A stretch of 64,000 bases of DNA from Escherichia coli (lineage in GTDB: Bacteria > Pseudomonadota > Gammaproteobacteria > Enterobacterales > Enterobacteriaceae), in assembly GCF_002854065.1 (NCBI RefSeq), contig NZ_CP024147.1; one strand, written 5' to 3'. A program made the translations under genes and the position numbers. Of this stretch, positions 14,612 through 24,559 are shown piece after piece; the stretch's first letter is position 1; the number at the start of each line of letters is the position of its first letter. The notes beneath the pieces were generated by a model. The model did not search any database and had not been told where the DNA came from. It worked only from the letters and a program-made list of their open reading frames with translations.

Positions 14612-16252
14612 ATGGCAATCCACAATCGTGCAGGCCAACCTGCACAACAGAGTGATTTGATTAACGTCGCCCAACTGACGGCGCAATATTATGTACTGAA
14701 ACCAGAAGCAGGGAATGCGGAGCACGCGGTGAAATTCGGTACTTCCGGTCACCGTGGCAGTGCAGCGCGCCACAGCTTTAACGAGCCGCACATTCTGGCG
14801 ATCGCTCAGGCAATTGCTGAAGAACGTGCGAAAAACGGCATCACTGGCCCTTGCTATGTGGGTAAAGATACTCACGCCCTGTCCGAACCTGCATTTATTT
14901 CCGTTCTGGAAGTGCTGGCAGCGAACGGCGTAGATGTTATTGTGCAGGAAAACAATGGCTTCACTCCGACGCCTGCTGTTTCCAATGCCATCCTGGTTCA
15001 CAATAAAAAAGGTGGCCCGCTGGCAGACGGTATCGTGATTACACCGTCCCATAACCCGCCGGAAGATGGTGGAATCAAATACAATCCGCCAAATGGTGGC
15101 CCGGCAGATACCAACGTCACTAAAGTGGTGGAAGATCGTGCCAACGCACTGCTGGCCGATGGCCTGAAAGGCGTGAAGCGTATCTCCCTCGACGAAGCGA
15201 TGGCATCCGGTCATGTGAAAGAGCAGGATCTGGTGCAGCCGTTCGTGGAAGGGCTGGCCGATATCGTTGATATGGCGGCGATTCAGAAAGCGGGCCTGAC
15301 GCTTGGCGTTGATCCGCTGGGCGGTTCCGGTATCGAATACTGGAAGCGTATTGGCGAGTATTACAACCTCAACCTGACTATCGTTAACGATCAGGTCGAT
15401 CAAACCTTCCGCTTTATGCACCTTGATAAAGACGGCGCGATCCGTATGGACTGCTCCTCTGAGTGTGCGATGGCGGGCCTGCTGGCACTGCGTGATAAGT
15501 TCGATCTGGCGTTTGCTAACGACCCGGATTATGACCGTCACGGTATCGTCACTCCGGCAGGTTTGATGAATCCGAACCACTACCTGGCGGTAGCGATCAA
15601 TTACCTGTTCCAGCATCGTCCGCAGTGGGGCAAAGATGTTGCCGTTGGGAAAACGCTGGTTTCATCTGCGATGATCGACCGTGTGGTCAACGACTTGGGC
15701 CGTAAACTGGTAGAAGTCCCGGTAGGTTTCAAATGGTTTGTTGATGGTCTGTTCGACGGCAGCTTCGGCTTTGGCGGCGAAGAGAGCGCAGGGGCTTCCT
15801 TCCTGCGTTTCGACGGCACGCCGTGGTCCACCGACAAAGACGGCATCATCATGTGTCTGCTGGCGGCGGAAATCACCGCTGTCACCGGTAAGAACCCGCA
15901 GGAACACTACAACGAACTGGCAAAACGCTTTGGTGCGCCGAGCTACAACCGTTTGCAGGCAGCTGCGACTTCCGCACAAAAAGCGGCGCTGTCTAAGCTG
16001 TCTCCGGAAATGGTGAGCGCCAGCACCCTGGCAGGTGACCCTATCACCGCGCGCCTGACTGCTGCTCCGGGCAACGGTGCTTCTATTGGCGGTCTGAAAG
16101 TGATGACTGACAACGGCTGGTTCGCCGCGCGTCCGTCAGGCACGGAAGACGCATATAAGATCTACTGCGAAAGCTTCCTCGGTGAAGAACATCGCAAGCA
16201 GATTGAGAAAGAAGCGGTTGAGATTGTTAGCGAAGTTCTGAAAAACGCGTAA
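14612..16252 (+). CDS. pgm: phosphoglucomutase
   Basis: 546-aa product [16 protein letters not shown]... with phosphoserine loop (TPSHNP); seqA-pgm operon synteny. Confidence 0.94.
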
Positions 16253-16263
16253 ACACATTAAAT

Positions 16264-16296
16264 AAAAAAAGGGCGGTCGCAAGATCGCCCTTTTTT
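16264..16296. terminator. bidirectional terminator between pgm and potE
   Basis: A7-gggcggtcgcaagatcgccc-T6 hairpin. Confidence 0.75.
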
Positions 16297-16307
16297 ACTT
16301 TGCTTTT

Positions 16308-17627
16308 TTAACCGTGTTTATTTTTCAGTTCAAAGCGTGGTGATACCAGACCATACAGTGTCCAACCAAGGAAGGTCACGATGGAACCGTACAGCATGGC
16401 TTCTTCCCCGGATGAGTACAGCGCATAAAAGCTGTACATCGCGCCAACAAAAGCAACAAAGTTTGCAACTTTCGCTTTTGAGGGGGGCACATTAGCGACC
16501 TTCTGAATAATGACTAATGCCGCCATTGACAGAATATACGGAATGATATTGGTCACCACGGCCAGGTTAACCAGCACGTTGAACTGACTGTTTAGCGACG
16601 GGCTAATCGTCATCAGCGCCAACCCGCTCTGGATAATCACAATGGTCAACATTCCCTGCACCGGTGCATCCACTTTGGTTACACGGGAGAAAATTTTAGG
16701 GAAGTAGCCTTCATCAGATGAAGATTTAAACACCTGGGCAATGGTGAACTGCCAGCCAAGCAGCGAACCGCAGCAGGACATCACCATCAGCGCCATAATG
16801 ACTTTACCCACTTCCGGCGTGAACATCTGCGCGAAGGCCAGACCAAATGGTGCCGTTGAATTTGCCAGCTCCATATTTGGCACAATCCCGGCAATCACGT
16901 TGGTGGAGACGATATAAATCACCGCCGCACCTAACGTACCGCCGAGTACCGCGATTGGCACATTACGTTCCGGGTTTTCCACTACATCAGTATTTGCACA
17001 CGCAGACTCCAGACCAAGAAAAGCCCACAGCGTCATAGCGATGGAAGAACCTACCGCACTGAAGAACGGTGCATGATGCGGATTCCAGGAATCAACGTAC
17101 AGCGTCGGGCTAAACCAGAACCAGCCAATAATGCACAGACCGACGACCGGAATAATGACTCCCCACACAGTAATGCTACTGATTTGCCCGGTAATGCGCG
17201 CACCACCAAAGTTAGCCACGGTACAAATCCACAGCACCCCGATGGTCGCAAGACCAATCTGCACTGGCGACAAACTCGCGCCGAGCAGTTCGGTGCCGTA
17301 ACCAACCGCCGAAATAGCAATCGCGACGTTAGCAATCAGCAGTGAGACGCCGTAGGTATAGTTCGCCATAAAGTTACCGGATTTACCGAAAGCATACTCG
17401 GCATAACCGCCCATACCTCCTGATTTACGGCTGAACATACCGCATTTTGCGAATGCCCATGCCAGTGCCATTGAGCCTACGGCTGTCACCAGCCAGGAGA
17501 TAATTGAGATTGTCCCAACTTCGGCAAGCTTTGTCGGCAGCATGATGATACCGGAGCCCATCATGTTGACCATCGTCAGTATGGTTAACTGAACGACGCC
17601 CATTTTGTTCGATTTAGCCTGACTCAT
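16308..17627 (-). CDS. potE: putrescine:ornithine antiporter
   Basis: 439-aa APC-family membrane protein; overlaps the speF stop by 4 nt (operon). Confidence 0.93.
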   Translation of the reverse strand: MSQAKSNKMGVVQLTILTMVNMMGSGIIMLPTKLAEVGTISIISWLVTAVGSMALAWAFAKCGMFSRKSGGMGGYAEYAFGKSGNFMANYTYGVSLLIANVAIAISAVGYGTELLGASLSPVQIGLATIGVLWICTVANFGGARITGQISSITVWGVIIPVVGLCIIGWFWFSPTLYVDSWNPHHAPFFSAVGSSIAMTLWAFLGLESACANTDVVENPERNVPIAVLGGTLGAAVIYIVSTNVIAGIVPNMELANSTAPFGLAFAQMFTPEVGKVIMALMVMSCCGSLLGWQFTIAQVFKSSSDEGYFPKIFSRVTKVDAPVQGMLTIVIIQSGLALMTISPSLNSQFNVLVNLAVVTNIIPYILSMAALVIIQKVANVPPSKAKVANFVAFVGAMYSFYALYSSGEEAMLYGSIVTFLGWTLYGLVSPRFELKNKHG

Positions 17628-19831
17628 AATTTTTCCCCTTTCAGCAGGGTGCTTTGCGCATCACGAGGCTTGATGACATAGCACCAAACTTGCTTACGAC
17701 CATCATGTTCTTCGATATAGACACCCTGCAGCTCCGGTGCAAAACCTGGCAGCAGGTTGATCCCTTCTTCCAGAGCGCTGAAGTAACGCAGAACAGCACC
17801 ACCCCAGATTTCACCCGGAACAACACACAGCACACCCGGAGGATAAGGAAGCGCACCTTCGGCAGCGATACGGCCTTCAGCATCCGGCAGACGAACCAGT
17901 TCCACTTCACCGCGTAAATAGGCGTAGTTGGCTTCTTGCGGATTCATGCTGACGCGTGGGAAGTGCTCCTTACGGAACATCTCTTTTTGCAGTTGTTTCA
18001 CGTTGTGGCGGGCATACAAATCATGCATTTCCTGACACAACTGACGCAGGGTATAACCGGCGTAGCGCTCTTCATGCTGTTTGTAGATGGAAGGTAGCAC
18101 TTCTGCTAATGGCGCGTCGGACTCAAGCAGTTTTTCGAAGCGTACCAGCAGGGCAACAAGTTGCTGAAGTTTGGCCATATCTTCTGCCGGAGTCAGCAGG
18201 AAGAGGATGGAGTTAAGATCGCATTTTTCCGGCACTACGCCATTTTCGCGCAGGAAGTTAGCAAGAATCGTCGCGGGTACACCGAACGCTTCATATTCGC
18301 CGTTACGTGCATCAATACCTGGGGTTGTCAGCAACAGTTTGCATGGATCGACAAAGTATTGATTCTCTGCATAGCCTTCAAAAGAATGCCAGTGTTCCCC
18401 TGGTACAAACTGGAAGAAGCGCAGATCAACCGCAATTTGCGCTGTTTCATACGACTGCCAGGGTTTACCATCCACCAGTTCAGGTATGAACGGACGAATA
18501 TGCTGACAGTTATCGAGGATCAGTTTGCGGGCATTAATGCCATTTACCACACAATCCATCCACATATTACGACCGCTGACACCTTCATGCATTTTGGCGT
18601 TGATATCCAGTGCGGCAAACAGCGGATAGAACGGGCTGGTGGAGGCATGCATCATAAAGGCGTTGTTCATGCGTTTGTGCGGTACATAACGCTGTTGCCC
18701 TTTGATGTGGCTGTCTTTTTTATGGATTTGTGAAGTTTGAGAAAAACCAGCCTGCTGTTTATGTACGGATTGCGTAACCAGAATACCCGGATCGTTCTCA
18801 TTAAGATCCAGCAACAGCGGCGAACAGTCAGCCATCATCGGAATAAACTGTTCATAGCCGACCCATGCGGAATCAAACAGGATGTAGTCACACAGATGAC
18901 CAATTTTATCCACCACCTGGCGGGCGTTATAAATCGTACCGTCGTAGGTGCCTAGCTGAATCACAGCGAGGCGGAACGGACGCGCCTCTTTTGCCCGTTG
19001 CGGTGCAACTTCTGTAATCAGTTCACGCAGATAACTTTCTTCGAAGCAGTGCGCATCAATACCACCGATAAAACCATACGGGTTACGTGCTGTTTCCAGA
19101 TAAACCGGTGTTGCACCAGCCTGTAGCAAGGCCCCGTGGTGGTTAGACTTATGGTTATTGCGGTCAAATAGCACCAGATCACCCGGTGTCAGCAGGGCGT
19201 TTAAAACCACTTTGTTAGAAGATGAAGTACCATTTAAAACGAAGTAGGTTTTATCGGCATTAAACACTTTTGCTGCATGTTGCTGTGCAATGCATGGCGC
19301 GCCTTCGTGAATCAGCAGATCGCCCATCGCGACGTCGGCGTTGCACAAGTCGGCACGGAACAGCGCCTCACCAAAGTATTCCACAAACTGATTCCCCGCC
19401 GGATGGCGACGGAAAAATTCGCCGCCCTGATGACCGGGGCAGTCAAATGCGCTGTTGCCCTGATTGACATAATCGACCAGTGCGCGAAAGAAAGGTGGGC
19501 GCAGTTGAGTTTCATAATGGCTGGCAGCGGTTTCTAACTGACGACCATAAAATTCTTTGCGTGCTTCTCCATGTTCGAAGACACCAGAAATACGTGAAAG
19601 ATATTCTGCTGGTATACGTTCTTCATTTTCCGTTGCAATAAAAACAGGAATGTCATAGCCAGTAGCGTCTATTTCATCGAGTTTTCCACGTTCAACATCA
19701 CTGACTGATAAAATAATGGCGGCAACGTCAATATAATTACTTTCGTCTATATTCACGCATGCACGATGAGTGGAAAAACAATCCGGGCAAGAACGACTAA
19801 CGGCAATTTTTAATTCTGACATTTTGTTCAT
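17624..19831 (-). CDS. speF: inducible ornithine decarboxylase
   Basis: 735-aa ORF of the PLP-dependent Orn/Lys/Arg decarboxylase family; upstream speFL leader present; exact start (MNKMSELK or MSELK) not resolved. Confidence 0.9.
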   Translation of the reverse strand: MNKMSELKIAVSRSCPDCFSTHRACVNIDESNYIDVAAIILSVSDVERGKLDEIDATGYDIPVFIATENEERIPAEYLSRISGVFEHGEARKEFYGRQLETAASHYETQLRPPFFRALVDYVNQGNSAFDCPGHQGGEFFRRHPAGNQFVEYFGEALFRADLCNADVAMGDLLIHEGAPCIAQQHAAKVFNADKTYFVLNGTSSSNKVVLNALLTPGDLVLFDRNNHKSNHHGALLQAGATPVYLETARNPYGFIGGIDAHCFEESYLRELITEVAPQRAKEARPFRLAVIQLGTYDGTIYNARQVVDKIGHLCDYILFDSAWVGYEQFIPMMADCSPLLLDLNENDPGILVTQSVHKQQAGFSQTSQIHKKDSHIKGQQRYVPHKRMNNAFMMHASTSPFYPLFAALDINAKMHEGVSGRNMWMDCVVNGINARKLILDNCQHIRPFIPELVDGKPWQSYETAQIAVDLRFFQFVPGEHWHSFEGYAENQYFVDPCKLLLTTPGIDARNGEYEAFGVPATILANFLRENGVVPEKCDLNSILFLLTPAEDMAKLQQLVALLVRFEKLLESDAPLAEVLPSIYKQHEERYAGYTLRQLCQEMHDLYARHNVKQLQKEMFRKEHFPRVSMNPQEANYAYLRGEVELVRLPDAEGRIAAEGALPYPPGVLCVVPGEIWGGAVLRYFSALEEGINLLPGFAPELQGVYIEEHDGRKQVWCYVIKPRDAQSTLLKGEKL

Positions 19832-19976
19832 CTCTTTATTTCAGGTAATAGCAGGTCCTCAATTTCTCAAAGGAGAAATCGATCACGCCGGAAAAAAGCA
19901 AAGCTCCACCGCTGATAAATAAATCAGTAGTTTGCTTTTTGCAGATGCAATAACCCAGACCAGCCCGGTAACTGGC

Positions 19977-20151
19977 TATACTCGTCATACTTCAAGTTGC
20001 ATGTGCTGCGTCTGCGTTCGCTCACCCCAGTCACTTACTCATGTAAGCTCCTGGGGATTCACTCGCTTGTCGCCTTCCTGCAACTCGAATTATTTAGAGT
20101 ATATACTCGTCATACTTCAAGTTGCATATGCTGCGACTCGAATTATGTAGA
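19977..20151. repeat. ERIC (enterobacterial repetitive intergenic consensus) element with a partial tandem second copy
   Basis: Contains the ERIC core GTAAGCTCCTGGGGATTCAC and terminal repeats TATACTCGTCATACTTCAAGTTGCAT(G/A)TGCTGCG. Confidence 0.75.
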
Positions 20152-20246
20152 GTTTAAAAGGGTTAGCAGTATATGAGCACCGAGGGATACAGGTATTAAC
20201 CTGTAATGCTTAAAGTCAGGGAGACCTGTACGCTGGGGTGCCCTTT

Positions 20247-20351
20247 AGTCAGAAGACTAGCGGGCATTAAAGAAATGAAAGTCAAAACTATTACGATGGG
20301 CAAACTTCATGATATGGGTTGTCCGCCTTATATGAGGCATTAAGCGGTTAT
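20247..20351 (-). CDS. speFL: speF leader peptide (ornithine-sensing arrest peptide)
   Basis: 34-codon reverse-strand ORF MENNNRLMPHIRRTTHIMKFAHRNSFDFHFFNAR upstream of speF; the HIRRxxH and C-terminal FDFHFFNAR stretches match the described SpeFL. Confidence 0.8.
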
Positions 20352-20556
20352 TATTTTCCATTTACCTTTACCTCTTGCTGTGTCAGTTGAAGGTAGAGTT
20401 ATTCTATCCATGAAATGGCTATAATCTGTGAAGAAGATCAACAAAAAACGATCATACCCCAGATAATAAATCATTAATTATGAATAGCGCCATACTAGAT
20501 GCTGTTTTGTTACTTAAATGTTGTAATTTCGTGTTTTATATTTGCGTTAAGAAATT

Positions 20557-20590
20557 AAACCTGCCAAATAATAATATTTGGCGCAGGTTT
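20557..20590 (-). terminator. putative terminator downstream of kdpE
   Basis: Imperfect hairpin aaacctgccaaata...tatttggcgcaggttt in an AT-rich region just 3' of the kdpE stop. Confidence 0.4.
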
Positions 20591-20635
20591 AATAATAAAT
20601 TAATCACTATTTAGGCGAATTTATTGAATAAAAAT

Positions 20636-21313
20636 TCAAAGCATAAACCGATAACCAATCCCAGTTTCAGTAATAAAATGGCGAGGCCGGGCCGGGTCTT
20701 GCTCCAGTTTTTGTCGCAGATGCCCCATATAAATACGCAAATAATGACTGTGTTCGACCGCGTTTGGCCCCCACACCTGGTTAAGGAGTTGGCGCTGGGT
20801 GAGCACTTTCCCGGCATTATTCAGCAGCACCGCCAGCAGGCGGAATTCAATCGGCGTGAGATGCACCTCTTCCTCACCCCGGTGAATCACGCGGGCGGCT
20901 AAATCGACGGTAACATCGGAGAATTTCACCAGCGGATCGGGCGCGGTGGTGACAGAGTGGCGGCGTAATGCGACGCGCAGACGGGCCTGCAATTCGCCAA
21001 TGCCAAACGGCTTACTCAGATAATCATCCGCTCCGGCATCCAGCGCGGCGATTTTGTCGCTCTCTTCGCTGCGTGCGGAAAGCACAATCACCGGCACCGC
21101 GCTCCACTGGCGCAGGTCGCGGATAAACTCAATCCCATCACCATCGGGCAGGCCGAGATCGAGAATAATCAAATCTGGCTTACGGGTTGCCGCTTCCAGC
21201 AAGCCGCGTTGCAGCGTTTCGGCCTCAAAGACGCGCATCCCGTCGCCCTCCAGCGCCGTGCGCAGAAAGCGACGAATAGCCTGTTCATCTTCAACAATCA
21301 GAACGTTTGTCAC
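20636..21313 (-). CDS. kdpE: response regulator KdpE (OmpR family)
   Basis: 225-aa ORF with receiver domain (LIVEDEQAIRRFL...D) and winged-helix C-terminus. Confidence 0.94.
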   Translation of the reverse strand: MTNVLIVEDEQAIRRFLRTALEGDGMRVFEAETLQRGLLEAATRKPDLIILDLGLPDGDGIEFIRDLRQWSAVPVIVLSARSEESDKIAALDAGADDYLSKPFGIGELQARLRVALRRHSVTTAPDPLVKFSDVTVDLAARVIHRGEEEVHLTPIEFRLLAVLLNNAGKVLTQRQLLNQVWGPNAVEHSHYLRIYMGHLRQKLEQDPARPRHFITETGIGYRFML

Positions 21314-23994
21314 ATATCCTCATGAAATTCTTCAAGTTCAGGAGCGGTTTGCTGGGGAAGTGTAACACGAAAACAGGCACCACCTTCCGGTCGGTTGAAC
21401 GCGGTAATGGTGCCGCCGTGTACATCCACAATCGCCCGACAAATTGCCAGTCCAAGCCCTACCCCCGGTACTGCCGACTCTTTATTCCCGCGAGCAAACT
21501 TATCAAATATCGTCTGCTCCTGGCCTGGCGGAAGACCGGGGCCGTTATCCCAGACATCCAGTTGTAGATTTTCGCCCTCAACGTGGGCATCGATACCAAT
21601 TTCGGCCTGCGCACCCGCATATTTCACTGCGTTCTCCAGCAAATTAATCAGCACCCGTTCAAAGAGTGGCCCGTCAACGTGGATTAAGGTCAGCGGTTCT
21701 GGCAGAGAAAGATTGATGGGCGACGATAAACCCGGTTCCAGCATTTGCAGCGCGCTGCCGACTACTTCTTCCAGCGTTAACCACTCTTTCTTCAAATTAA
21801 AGCCGCCGGACTGAATTCGCGCCATATCCAGTAGATTATTCACCAGTCGGGTAGTGTTCAGCACATGCTGACGAATCTCGCTGGCCTGGCGGGCGTGGGG
21901 TGATCCTTCGCTTGCCAGATCGAGCGTTAAGATTTCTGCCTGACCAAACAGCACCGTAAGCGGAGTGCGTAAATCATGCGAAAGCGCCGCCAGCAGGGCG
22001 TTGCGGATCTGTTCACGTTCGCTTGCCATCCGCGCCTGTTCTTCGCTGGCGGTCAGCGTCAGCCGCTCAAGCGCATTGGCGACTAACAGCGTAAACGTCT
22101 CCAGCAGGCGCTGCTGTTCCGGGATCATCAACTGACGCAGATTCCCCGGTTCCACCACCACCAGCCCGTAGGTTTTCTCACCGCTTTTTAACGGCAAAAT
22201 CTGGTACGGCACGCCGGGTAACGTGTCGGTGCCCGCACCCGCAGGCAGGCCTTTATCAAAACTCCACTGCGCGATGGCATCGTCCCACGGCGTCATTCCT
22301 TGCGGATGTGTTAACGGCTGCAATTTACCGTTGTCATCGGGCAACAACACCTGACTGCGGGCATGAAACGTGGAGGCAATAAATTGTTCGCTGGTGGCGG
22401 CGATGTCCTGCGGACTGCGGCCCACAGCCAGAGCTTTCGACATTTCATATAAGTGCCGTGTGCGTTGTTCGCGGTAACGGGCTACCCGCGCCTGATAACG
22501 CACGCCAGCAGTAAGGTTCCCGATCACCAGCCCGACGGTTAACATCACCGCGAAGGTCAGCAGATATTGCACATCAGAGACGGCGAGCGTGCCGCGTGGG
22601 GCGATAAAAAAGAGATCGAAACTCACCACATTAATGACGGTAGCAACCACCGAAGGCCAGCGTCCATAAAATAGCGCCACCACCACCACGCCAAGTAGAT
22701 ACAGCATCACCAGGTTGGCGGCATCAAACGCCATCAGCCACTGCATGGCAATTAAGGTGATAACGGCGCATAACGCGGCGGCAACCACGCATCCCTGAAT
22801 CTGTACCCGCCACTTGTCTTTAAAAGAGCGGCTATCCGGCGCGTTGTTAATCGTGCGGGCGGGTGGTTCATCAAGCGCGACCAGCACCTGATCGAGATCG
22901 GGGGCGATGCGCGCCAGTCGGTCAGCAAACGTTTCCCGACGCCACCAGCGGCGCGAGGCTGGGCGACCGAGAATAATCTTGCCGAGATTATGTTCACGGG
23001 CATAACGCACTACCGCTTTCTCTTCCGCTGGATCAGAAAGTGTTGCCGTCTCCGCGCCCAGCTCCTGCGCCAGACGTAAGGCGCTGAGAATTGCCCGACG
23101 TTTTTTCTCCGGTAAGCGATGCAGGGCAGGGGTTTCAACATACACCGCGTGCCAGACGCTACCCAGCCGCGCCGCCAGCCGCGCCGCCGCGCGGACCAGT
23201 TTCTCACTGCCGGTGTTATGCCCGATGCATAAAAGGATCGCGTCGCGCGTGTGCCAGACTTTCTCTTCGCCAGGATGCCCCCGCCAGGCGCGCATTTGCT
23301 CATCAACGCGATCGGCAGTACGGCGCAGTGCCAGTTCGCGCAGGGCGATCAGATTGCCTTTGCGGAAAAAATGTTCAATGGCGCGCTCCGCCTGCCCGGC
23401 AATATAGACTTTGCCTTCTTTCAGCCGCTGGCGCAGATCGTCCGGGGGCAAGTCCACCAGCACCACGTCGTCGGCGGCATCGAAAAAAGGATCGGGCACG
23501 GTTTCCCGTACCTGAATTCCGGTGACGCCGCTGACCACATCATTCAGACTTTCCAGATGCTGAACGTTGACGGTTGTGAAAACATCAATGCCAGCTTCTA
23601 GCAGTTCTTCGATATCCTGCCAGCGTTTAGGATGACGAGAACCTGGCGCATTACTGTGCGCCAGTTCGTCCATTAAGATCAGCGCCGGACGGCGGGCGAG
23701 GGCGGCATCGAGATCAAACTCGCTGATGTGCCGCCCACGGTACGCCAGGCGTTTTGGCGGCAGAACAGCCAGCCCTTCCAGCATGGCGGCGGTATCTTTC
23801 CGCCCGTGGGTTTCTACCACGCCAACCACAATATCCAGCCCTTGCGCCCGCAGTCGCTGGGCTTCTGCCAGCATCGCCCAGGTCTTCCCGACGCCTGCGC
23901 AGGCACCGAAGAAAACTTTCAGCTTCCCCCGATGCGGCGCGGCAGTTTGTTCCAGCAGACGATCGGGGTCGGGACGTAAGGGTTCGTTATTCAT
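21310..23994 (-). CDS. kdpD: sensor histidine kinase KdpD
   Basis: 894-aa product from [13 protein letters not shown]; Walker-A-containing KdpD N-domain, four TM helices, HisKA/HATPase; overlaps the kdpC stop. Confidence 0.93.
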
Positions 23995-24559
23995 CAAGTT
24001 TATCCAGCGCCAGATTGAGTTCGACAATGTTGACGACCGGCTGGCCGATATATTTCACCAGTGGTTGTTGGCTGTATTTTGCGATCAGTTGCGTGAGCTG
24101 TTCAACGCTGAGATTACGCGCTTTCGCTACGCGTGGGATCTGCCAGGCAGCCGCTTGCGGGGTGATGTTATTGTCCAGCCCGCTTGCCGACGCCGTCACC
24201 AGTTCAACCGGAACGTTCGCGCTGGCATCCGGGTTAGTGGCCCGTAATGCAGCAACGCGTGCGGCTATTAGTTTATCCAGCTCAGGGTTACTGACCGCCA
24301 GGTTGCTCCCGCCAGAAGCCTGTGGATTATAGGGCATTTCTGCCGTTGCCGACGGGCGACCATGAAAATAGCCGTTGCCGGTAAAATTCTGCCCGATTAA
24401 TGCCGAACCGCGCACCGTATCACCTTCACGAATCAACGAACCATTGGCCTGCCAGGGAAACCACCATTGCCCCAGCACGGTGGTCAGCAGCGGGTAAACG
24501 CCGCCAGTAATCAATAACAGAAAGATAAATGTCGATAATGCCGGACGTAATCCACTCAT
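23987..24559 (-). CDS. kdpC: K+-transporting ATPase subunit C
   Basis: 190-aa product starting [16 protein letters not shown]. Confidence 0.92.

Follow-up and report, generated by a model that had tools for sequence, protein, structure and literature searches.

The speFL-speF leader is a textbook case of how an arrest peptide that senses a metabolite can be coupled to Rho termination. In the published model, the rut site and speFL overlap, and a hairpin around the speFL stop codon causes RNA polymerase to pause (10.1101/604074; PMC6386406). Rho terminates transcription in Salmonella at +157, about 21 nt past the stop codon (PMC6386406). The 3′ part of the upstream ORF (uORF) pairs with the speF ribosome-binding site (RBS), and the resulting helix both prevents translation and closes off a large "ring"; in Salmonella, this helix was validated by compensatory mutations, and deletions in the ring abolish the decay that depends on arginine and RNase G (PMC6386406). 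Ornithine-dependent arrest and Rho-dependent termination have been established for the K-12 and Salmonella alleles only (10.1101/604074; PMC6386406).

We analyzed a stretch of 64,000 nucleotides from Escherichia coli (contig NZ_CP024147.1; hereafter the window), in which this leader carries two abutting ERIC elements. ERIC elements, also known as IRU or RU-1, occur in Enterobacteriaceae and Vibrionaceae. They are reportedly the subject of Sharples & Lloyd 1990, Hulton et al. 1991 and Wilson & Sharp 2006, the last of which is said to list 14 non-K-12 ERIC loci. The full element studied here is like the rest of the family in its length of 127 nt, its core, its palindrome and its transcribed intergenic site, as well as in having several near-identical copies per genome and in being present or absent by strain. 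Nothing categorical sets it apart, and ERIC itself is a known kind of element. What distinguishes the pair is its arrangement, in which a short and a full element abut at one site in a characterized regulatory leader. A search for a link between speF and ERIC found nothing relevant among the papers that it covered.

Short ERIC forms, which arise by internal deletion, likewise have their arms joined elsewhere without the core and still form a hairpin, and a similar form is present in the Salmonella isrH model. The short ERIC in the speF leader differs from these in being fixed at this site in about 65% of E. coli and in having a decayed orthologue in Escherichia albertii. It is possibly the landing site of the full copy.

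The leader has the same architecture as the Salmonella ring (Ben-Zvi et al. 2019, PMC6386406), namely speFL/orf34, a stop-codon hairpin, a downstream hairpin and a large loop, closed where the 3′ part of the uORF pairs with the speF RBS. The Salmonella loop, too, holds a lineage-specific hairpin insert of about 120 nt, whose deletion affects arginine-dependent decay (PMC6386406). This insert differs from the E. coli ERICs in its position, about 55 nt more to the 5′ side, and in showing no detectable relationship to ERIC (nhmmer E > 10).

In Yersinia, too, ERICs are transcribed together with the neighboring genes and form a long hairpin in the RNA. However, the copies studied there are located at gene 3′ ends and affect the cistron upstream of them via RNase E (De Gregorio et al. 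2005 as summarized in PMC2229807, PMC10969869), whereas the E. coli pair lies in a 5′ leader, 100 nt past a 34-codon uORF. The Correia elements of Neisseria and other miniature inverted-repeat elements (MITEs) are similarly small, non-autonomous, bounded by inverted repeats and co-transcribed, with hairpins that RNases can process (PMC2229807, PMC10969869). Correia elements are an unrelated family that can carry promoters and IHF sites and that are RNase III substrates; none of these properties is indicated for the ERIC pair here.

A short and a full ERIC between speFL and speF

The 801 nt around the ERICs are 100% identical to complete E. coli genomes including SCU-316, NCTC10444 and LH50-c, and RefSeq annotates both speFL and speF in these and other identical genomes. 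The SpeFL peptide keeps the HIRRxxH motif, a pair of rare arginine codons (AGG-CGG) at positions 12-13 and the C-terminal FFNAR-stop, all within 34 codons; this motif, these codons and this C-terminus define leaders of the speFL type (10.1101/604074). Coordinates of the region are given in Table 1.

From the speFL stop to the speF start there are 434 nt if the RefSeq-equivalent ATG at 19822 is used, or 425 nt if an upstream ATG at 19831 is taken instead. The latter is in frame with speF as the product of a 2-nt indel relative to K-12, which is why the ORF finder gives a SpeF of 735 aa, while RefSeq has 732 aa from the conserved ATG-TCA at 19822. The earlier note had estimated a distance of about 415 nt, which is too short by either count, and its position for speFL (20247-20351) was 10 nt off.

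Table 1. Positions of genes, ERIC elements and predicted RNA helices around the speF leader in the window. Leader positions (+) count from the presumed transcription start.
Feature	Position	Strand	Leader position	Basis or detail
kdpD	21310-24027	-		
kdpE	20636-21313	-		
speFL, leader ORF of 34 codons, peptide MENNNRLMPHIRRTTHIMKFAHRNSFDFHFFNAR, TAG stop	20257-20361	-		ORF list, translation, RefSeq "leader peptide SpeFL" in identical genomes
5′ strand of predicted long-range helix (speFL codons ~24-32)	20268-20290	-		MFE, partition function
Predicted hairpin enclosing the speFL stop	20239-20266	-		MFE helices 20262-20266/20239-20243 and 20255-20259/20246-20250
Predicted clamp helix, TAACCC (20160-20165) with GGGTTA (19951-19956)	19951-20165	-		MFE structures, alignment
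Short ERIC, 55 nt, internally deleted, with both arms	20102-20156	-	~+239 to +293	Duplicated arms, hairpin
Full ERIC, 127 nt, TATACTC...GAGTATA	19977-20103	-	~+292 to +418	Core match, nhmmer, hairpin
3′ strand of predicted long-range helix, with speF Shine-Dalgarno AAGAG (~19833-19837) and start (19822)	19811-19838	-		MFE, partition function
speF, inducible ornithine decarboxylase	17624-19822	-		Start as in RefSeq
potE, putrescine transporter, second gene of the operon	16308-17627	-		

We placed the transcription start at about 20394 by analogy with Salmonella, and all leader positions preceded by a plus sign rest on it. In this numbering, the speFL AUG is at +34, its stop codon at +136-138 and the speF AUG at +573. 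The ERIC pair begins 100 nt past the speFL stop, at about +239. This is about 80 nt beyond the mapped Salmonella termination point and inside the ring. The pair thus occupies the 5′ leader between speFL and speF as this leader is defined in K-12 and Salmonella, and it is presumably transcribed with the leader in this strain.

By sequence, both elements belong to ERIC, a family of miniature inverted-repeat elements. The 44-nt consensus of the conserved central ERIC core is matched at 43 of 44 positions (one mismatch) at 20019-20062 on the minus strand, while 100 shuffled sequences yielded 0 matches. This identification is corroborated by the resemblance of the 127-nt copy to copies at other loci and by matches across genera. 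Elsewhere in the genome, 5,425 of the 5,426 E. coli genomes have ERICs that are 97-99.2% identical to the 127-nt copy, and an nhmmer search with the full element returned, beside the self match (E = 5e-36), loci in Kluyvera, Serratia and Vibrio at E-values of 1e-8 to 1e-16. The best copies at other loci are 99.2% identical and none is 100% identical in a search that considered one place per genome record. E. coli genomes have a median of 5 ERIC places by megablast and 12 by blastn; the window itself has only one full copy.

The short and full elements lie head to tail and have the TA at 20102-20103 in common. In the mRNA, the short ERIC comes first and the full ERIC follows directly on its 3′ side. 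The short element consists of left and right arms joined at GAGTC|GCAG, with the central core missing. A repeat search accordingly found both arms in duplicate, the right (R) arm over 37 nt at a spacing of 125 nt and the left (L) arm over 26 nt at a spacing of 53 nt. The earlier note's proposal of an ERIC between speFL and speF is borne out by these data. It had also described one and a half copies at 19977-20151, the half being a partial repeat of the terminal arm. The full element stands, but the extra piece is a short ERIC with both arms, and the composite extends to 20156.

Both elements are predicted to form strong RNA hairpins. The full ERIC folds at -53.2 kcal/mol (z = -8.3) and the short ERIC at -18.5 kcal/mol (z = -4.5), and in neither case did any shuffled sequence fold as well. 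The full element is an imperfect palindrome, and its terminal inverted repeats pair as the helix TATACTC/GAGTATA. A TA occurs where the two elements join and at the right end (GAGTA-TA-GCC); at the left end, E. coli has TT-TAAACTC and E. albertii has TTA-TACTC. The K-12-type empty site is too diverged for the original ERIC target sequence to be read from it.

The short form also occurs at a second, unrelated locus, the yafP-rtcB/prfH intergenic region of E. coli KFu019 (L096 1201-1255), with the same GAGTC|GCAG junction. We therefore rejected the idea that the short copy is a deletion specific to the speF locus. Moreover, a contiguous match to the short ERIC is found in roughly 780 more genomes than carry the copy in the speF leader. 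Given the common junction and this excess of matches, we regard the short form as a recurrent or mobile ERIC subtype.

Two small RNA families in Rfam resemble the insert below threshold. V_AS5 (RF02818) scores 46.3 bits against a gathering cutoff of 96, and isrH (RF01391) scores 26.4 bits against 45. We rejected both, as the likeness is confined to ERIC-like sequence within the models.

Several other features of the region were observed. RefSeq annotates a "hypothetical protein" ORF of 44 aa (20340-20474, minus strand) in the identical genomes; it overlaps the speF promoter and the start of speFL and is probably spurious. A terminator-like hairpin follows kdpE (20563-20582, minus strand), with the sequence GCCAAATATTATTATTTGGC and then a T-rich tail. 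Between pgm and potE (16250-16305) there is a GC-rich hairpin flanked by A and T runs, which has sub-threshold Rfam matches to STnc320 and MicX and is probably a bidirectional terminator. In the window, pgm directly adjoins potE (16054-16308), whereas K-12 has ybfP, ybfG′ and ybfI′ between them (L001 413-1871). The K-12 ybfI pseudogene is 89.7% identical to the 3′ end of kdpE in the window (20635-20779), a possible trace of an old event, either rearrangement or import, that involved the kdpE-speF-potE segment.

Leader alleles in E. coli and related species

We took a census of 5,426 complete E. coli genomes, of which 5,044 have a speFL-speF leader. About 3,300 carry only the short ERIC (for example, EDL933), and about 1,702 have the empty, K-12-type leader. 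The short-plus-full form of the window is rare, with 32 genomes or about 0.6% of complete E. coli genomes. A single genome, NCTC9112, has only the full ERIC, and another, DCE7, has a short-short-full array. All five alleles are at exactly one site. The earlier note had left it to an alignment with K-12 and other strains whether the element belongs to the reference leader. K-12 MG1655 has an empty site and a spacer of 257 nt, as against 434 nt in the window, and the same ERIC copy is not common to all reference leaders.

We observed no match to the speFL-speF leader in 382 of the 5,426 genomes, for example strain HS and O145:H28 RM12581, which suggests that the locus was lost in some E. coli lineages.

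The leader differs from that of K-12 in more than its ERICs. In a block of about 1.2 kb (~19535-20720), which spans the 3′ end of kdpE, the promoter, speFL, the leader and the first ~96 codons of speF, the window is only 47-92% identical to K-12 per 60-nt window, compared to 97-100% outside the block. Within it, the window is further from K-12 than from E. albertii. The K-12-type block is present in about 34% of E. coli and is thus the minority haplotype. The presence of ERICs is linked to the other haplotype; strain VE-V11-M (L005) is a mosaic of both. Because of this linkage, a comparison of K-12 with wild strains confounds the ERICs with about 16% divergence of the leader. The natural series of short, full and short-plus-full alleles is the proper test material.

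We also scanned species-representative genomes that encode SpeF. Among 80 loci, speFL was recognizable upstream of speF in about 50. In most other Enterobacteriaceae, the spacer measures 247-257 nt and lacks an ERIC, from which we take the empty site to be ancestral. E. albertii has a decayed short ERIC at the exact site used in E. coli, with 41 identical positions over the 55-nt element, a match that none of 2000 shuffles equaled (0/2000) and a hairpin of -15.8 kcal/mol. Given this orthologue, the short ERIC in the speF leader must be old.

A full ERIC is found in the speFL-speF leader of Kluyvera genomosp. 1 (L015 2173-2298), 38 nt past the speFL stop. It is independent of the E. coli element and has the same G-rich orientation. 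In Salmonella enterica subsp. diarizonae and arizonae (L008 and L010, ~2170-2300), the leader has the lineage-specific insert of about 120 nt, whose long hairpin is apparently the "hairpin a" of the published ring. MAFFT aligned this insert with the Kluyvera ERIC, but neither blastn with word size 7 nor a cross-genus nhmmer profile (E ≤ 10) detected any ERIC likeness in it, and we set aside the idea of a decayed ERIC as not demonstrable.

ERICs were also observed near speF outside the leader. One lies just downstream of speF in Serratia silvae, and others are upstream of speFL in Serratia sp. PL17, Vibrio cholerae and V. metoecus. The coordinates of these Serratia and Vibrio loci are L046 4748-4874, L045 1124-1252, L058 1576-1696 and L061 1559-1680.

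Within E. coli, the short-plus-full form occurs on at least three flanking haplotypes that are about 5% apart, and each of these haplotypes has near-identical relatives with only the short copy (3-10 differences per 1.3 kb). Several such pairs share SpeF protein accessions. The rarer alleles are consistent with single events within the array. In NCTC9112, the left arm of the full-only allele is a chimera of both left arms of the short-plus-full form (L1/L2), which fits a deletion of 53 nt and makes it unlikely that this allele is the ancestor of the series. The short-only FDAARGOS_1255 has one private flanking SNP in common with the short-plus-full 382634_2f, and its single right arm is that of the full copy, which fits a deletion of 125 nt. 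In DCE7, the 53-nt unit is duplicated. As regards mobility, which for an ERIC would rely on a transposase supplied in trans, the changes observed at the site are differences in presence or absence and deletions or duplications mediated by the arms.

These observations lead us to infer an order of events. The old short ERIC, common to E. albertii and about two thirds of E. coli, would have come first, and the full ERIC would have been added later, adjoining the resident short copy. The repeated arms could then permit slippage or recombination to produce short-only, full-only and short-short-full alleles in one step.

Predicted folding and possible effects on speF expression

We computed minimum free energy (MFE) structures and partition functions for six leaders: those of the window, EDL933, NCTC9112, DCE7 and K-12, and the window leader with the ERICs deleted in silico. 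All of these are equilibrium predictions. The hairpin that encloses the speFL stop corresponds to the pause hairpin of the published model, from which we take its role (10.1101/604074). It is predicted to be retained with the ERICs in place, and it is also predicted in EDL933, NCTC9112 and DCE7. The speF Shine-Dalgarno sequence is predicted to pair with the 3′ part of speFL with a probability of about 0.99 whatever the ERIC state, whether both elements, the short or the full one are present or they are removed in silico. A predicted clamp helix encloses the insertion site together with both ERICs and a small hairpin (19959-19976), and the K-12 leader is predicted to form the same clamp (AACCCTT/AAGGGTT) at its empty site. 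In the window leader, the probability mass of ERIC pairing to the rest of the leader is 0.0.

We consider it most plausible, with a probability of roughly 0.6, that the ERIC pair is an ordinary insertion polymorphism and a structurally insulated, near-neutral passenger in a tolerant loop of the leader. Once Rho termination is bypassed, both ERICs would be transcribed and would fold as two self-contained hairpins inside the ring closed by the helix of the speFL 3′ part and the speF RBS. The leader would be longer by about 177 nt, with the sensor, the rut site, the pause hairpin and the RBS-sequestering helix intact, and ornithine- and Rho-dependent control would work as in the reference leader. 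In favor of this passenger reading, Kluyvera tolerates a full ERIC and Salmonella a hairpin insert of about 120 nt in the speF leader. Near-neutrality is what we infer from the predicted structures, although several points go against this reading: the Salmonella ring is not inert, ERICs in Yersinia are reported to affect mRNA stability through an RNase E site (PMC2229807, PMC10969869), some 177 extra nucleotides would make the speF RBS emerge later relative to the stalled ribosome, and the full copy is identical in carriers whose flanks are about 5% apart.

The main alternative is one that we regard as plausible, if on balance doubtful: the ERIC hairpins could change the lifetime of speF mRNA, either through an RNase E site in an arm, as proposed for Yersinia, or as an obstacle or protector in the RNase G/E-dependent decay that the ring mediates in Salmonella. 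One would then expect speF output or arginine repression to vary between strains with their ERIC state. The plausibility of such an effect comes from the importance of the ring for RNase G-dependent decay in Salmonella and from the effect reported for Yersinia. According to reviews, ERICs in Yersinia alter how stable the mRNA transcribed with them is, and their orientation matters for this (PMC2229807, PMC3184786, PMC10969869), and the Salmonella ring along with a 12-nt element (388-400) is needed for destabilization by arginine and RNase G (PMC6386406). In our alignment, this 12-nt element follows about 45 nt after the position that matches the 3′ end of the ERICs, and the insert adds -72 kcal/mol of predicted structure there. 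However, the ERICs with this effect in Yersinia were located at gene 3′ ends rather than in a 5′ leader, and the predicted structures outside the insert are unchanged. Moreover, neither the short form, with about 3,300 genomes, nor the long form, with 32, shows signs of fixation by selection.

It is rather improbable, but worth noting, that the array is more than a passenger in another sense. The full ERIC could be a recent and possibly recurrent insertion that was targeted to the terminal TA or hairpin of the short ERIC by a family that is still mobile, and the array could act as a slippage-prone switch that tunes the length of the speF leader and thereby mRNA decay or translation coupling. 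This reading retains some credibility because the full copy is identical across at least three haplotypes while the short copy varies. Among seven carriers, the full ERIC has one variable site in 127, located at the junction, compared to 6 in 53 for the short ERIC (p = 0.003). A simple history of an old insertion followed by losses does not explain this invariant full copy. Low divergence is typical of the ERIC family, since copies at other loci are 97-99.2% identical to this one, and the data fit recombinational spread, recurrent insertion and conservation alike.

The earlier note had suggested that the element changes Rho loading. An insert that alters Rho loading or Rho-dependent attenuation, by offering Rho more untranslated RNA and time or by blocking it, is likewise improbable, and we rate it slightly lower still. 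The leader is under Rho control, there are about 177 nt more of untranslated RNA between the attenuator and speF, and Rho termination zones can be broad. However, the rut site lies over speFL, Salmonella termination occurs about 80 nt upstream of the position of the insert, and the ERIC RNA is G-rich and predicted to be almost fully base-paired, the opposite of a rut site. In the sense of the mRNA, C minus G is -4 to -10 per 60 nt in the ERICs; the C-rich stretch of the leader is at about +41 to +260. Being G-rich, folded into very stable hairpins and downstream of the rut site and the termination point, the pair would be a poor Rho substrate that comes after the decision has been made. The suggestion of altered Rho loading is therefore weak and found no support.

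The possibility that the pair supplies a new promoter, terminator or antisense or small RNA acting on speF independently of speFL is very remote: some MITEs of other bacteria carry promoters (PMC3184786), and the insert has the sub-threshold Rfam matches mentioned above (V_AS5, 46 bits; isrH, 26 bits), but these scores are far below gathering, and a scan of 19977-20156 found no sigma-70-like promoter or intrinsic-terminator-like site on either strand.

Finally, palindromic repeats are prone to mis-assembly, but it is scarcely conceivable that the tandem ERICs are an assembly artefact, given that 32 complete genomes, each assembled independently, contain the 251-nt structure at 98.4-100% identity; these genomes come from several hosts and countries and have at least three flanking haplotypes.

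Significance for the speF leader and the ERIC family

Mechanistic work on speFL-speF has all used K-12, which has no ERIC, or Salmonella, which has a different insert. About two thirds of E. coli have a short ERIC hairpin in the speF leader, and a few lineages have an additional full ERIC. Because the K-12 leader is a divergent minority haplotype, results on K-12 speFL should not be assumed to be quantitatively transferable to pathogenic lineages. A near-isogenic natural allelic series is available to address whether the length and structure of the leader matter.

If the ERICs are neutral, the locus would neatly illustrate how a regulatory leader can set one loop aside for tolerating insertions; otherwise, a MITE would be linked to polyamine and acid-stress physiology. 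Should the full copy prove to be a targeted insertion, it would be evidence that ERIC mobility continues in E. coli.
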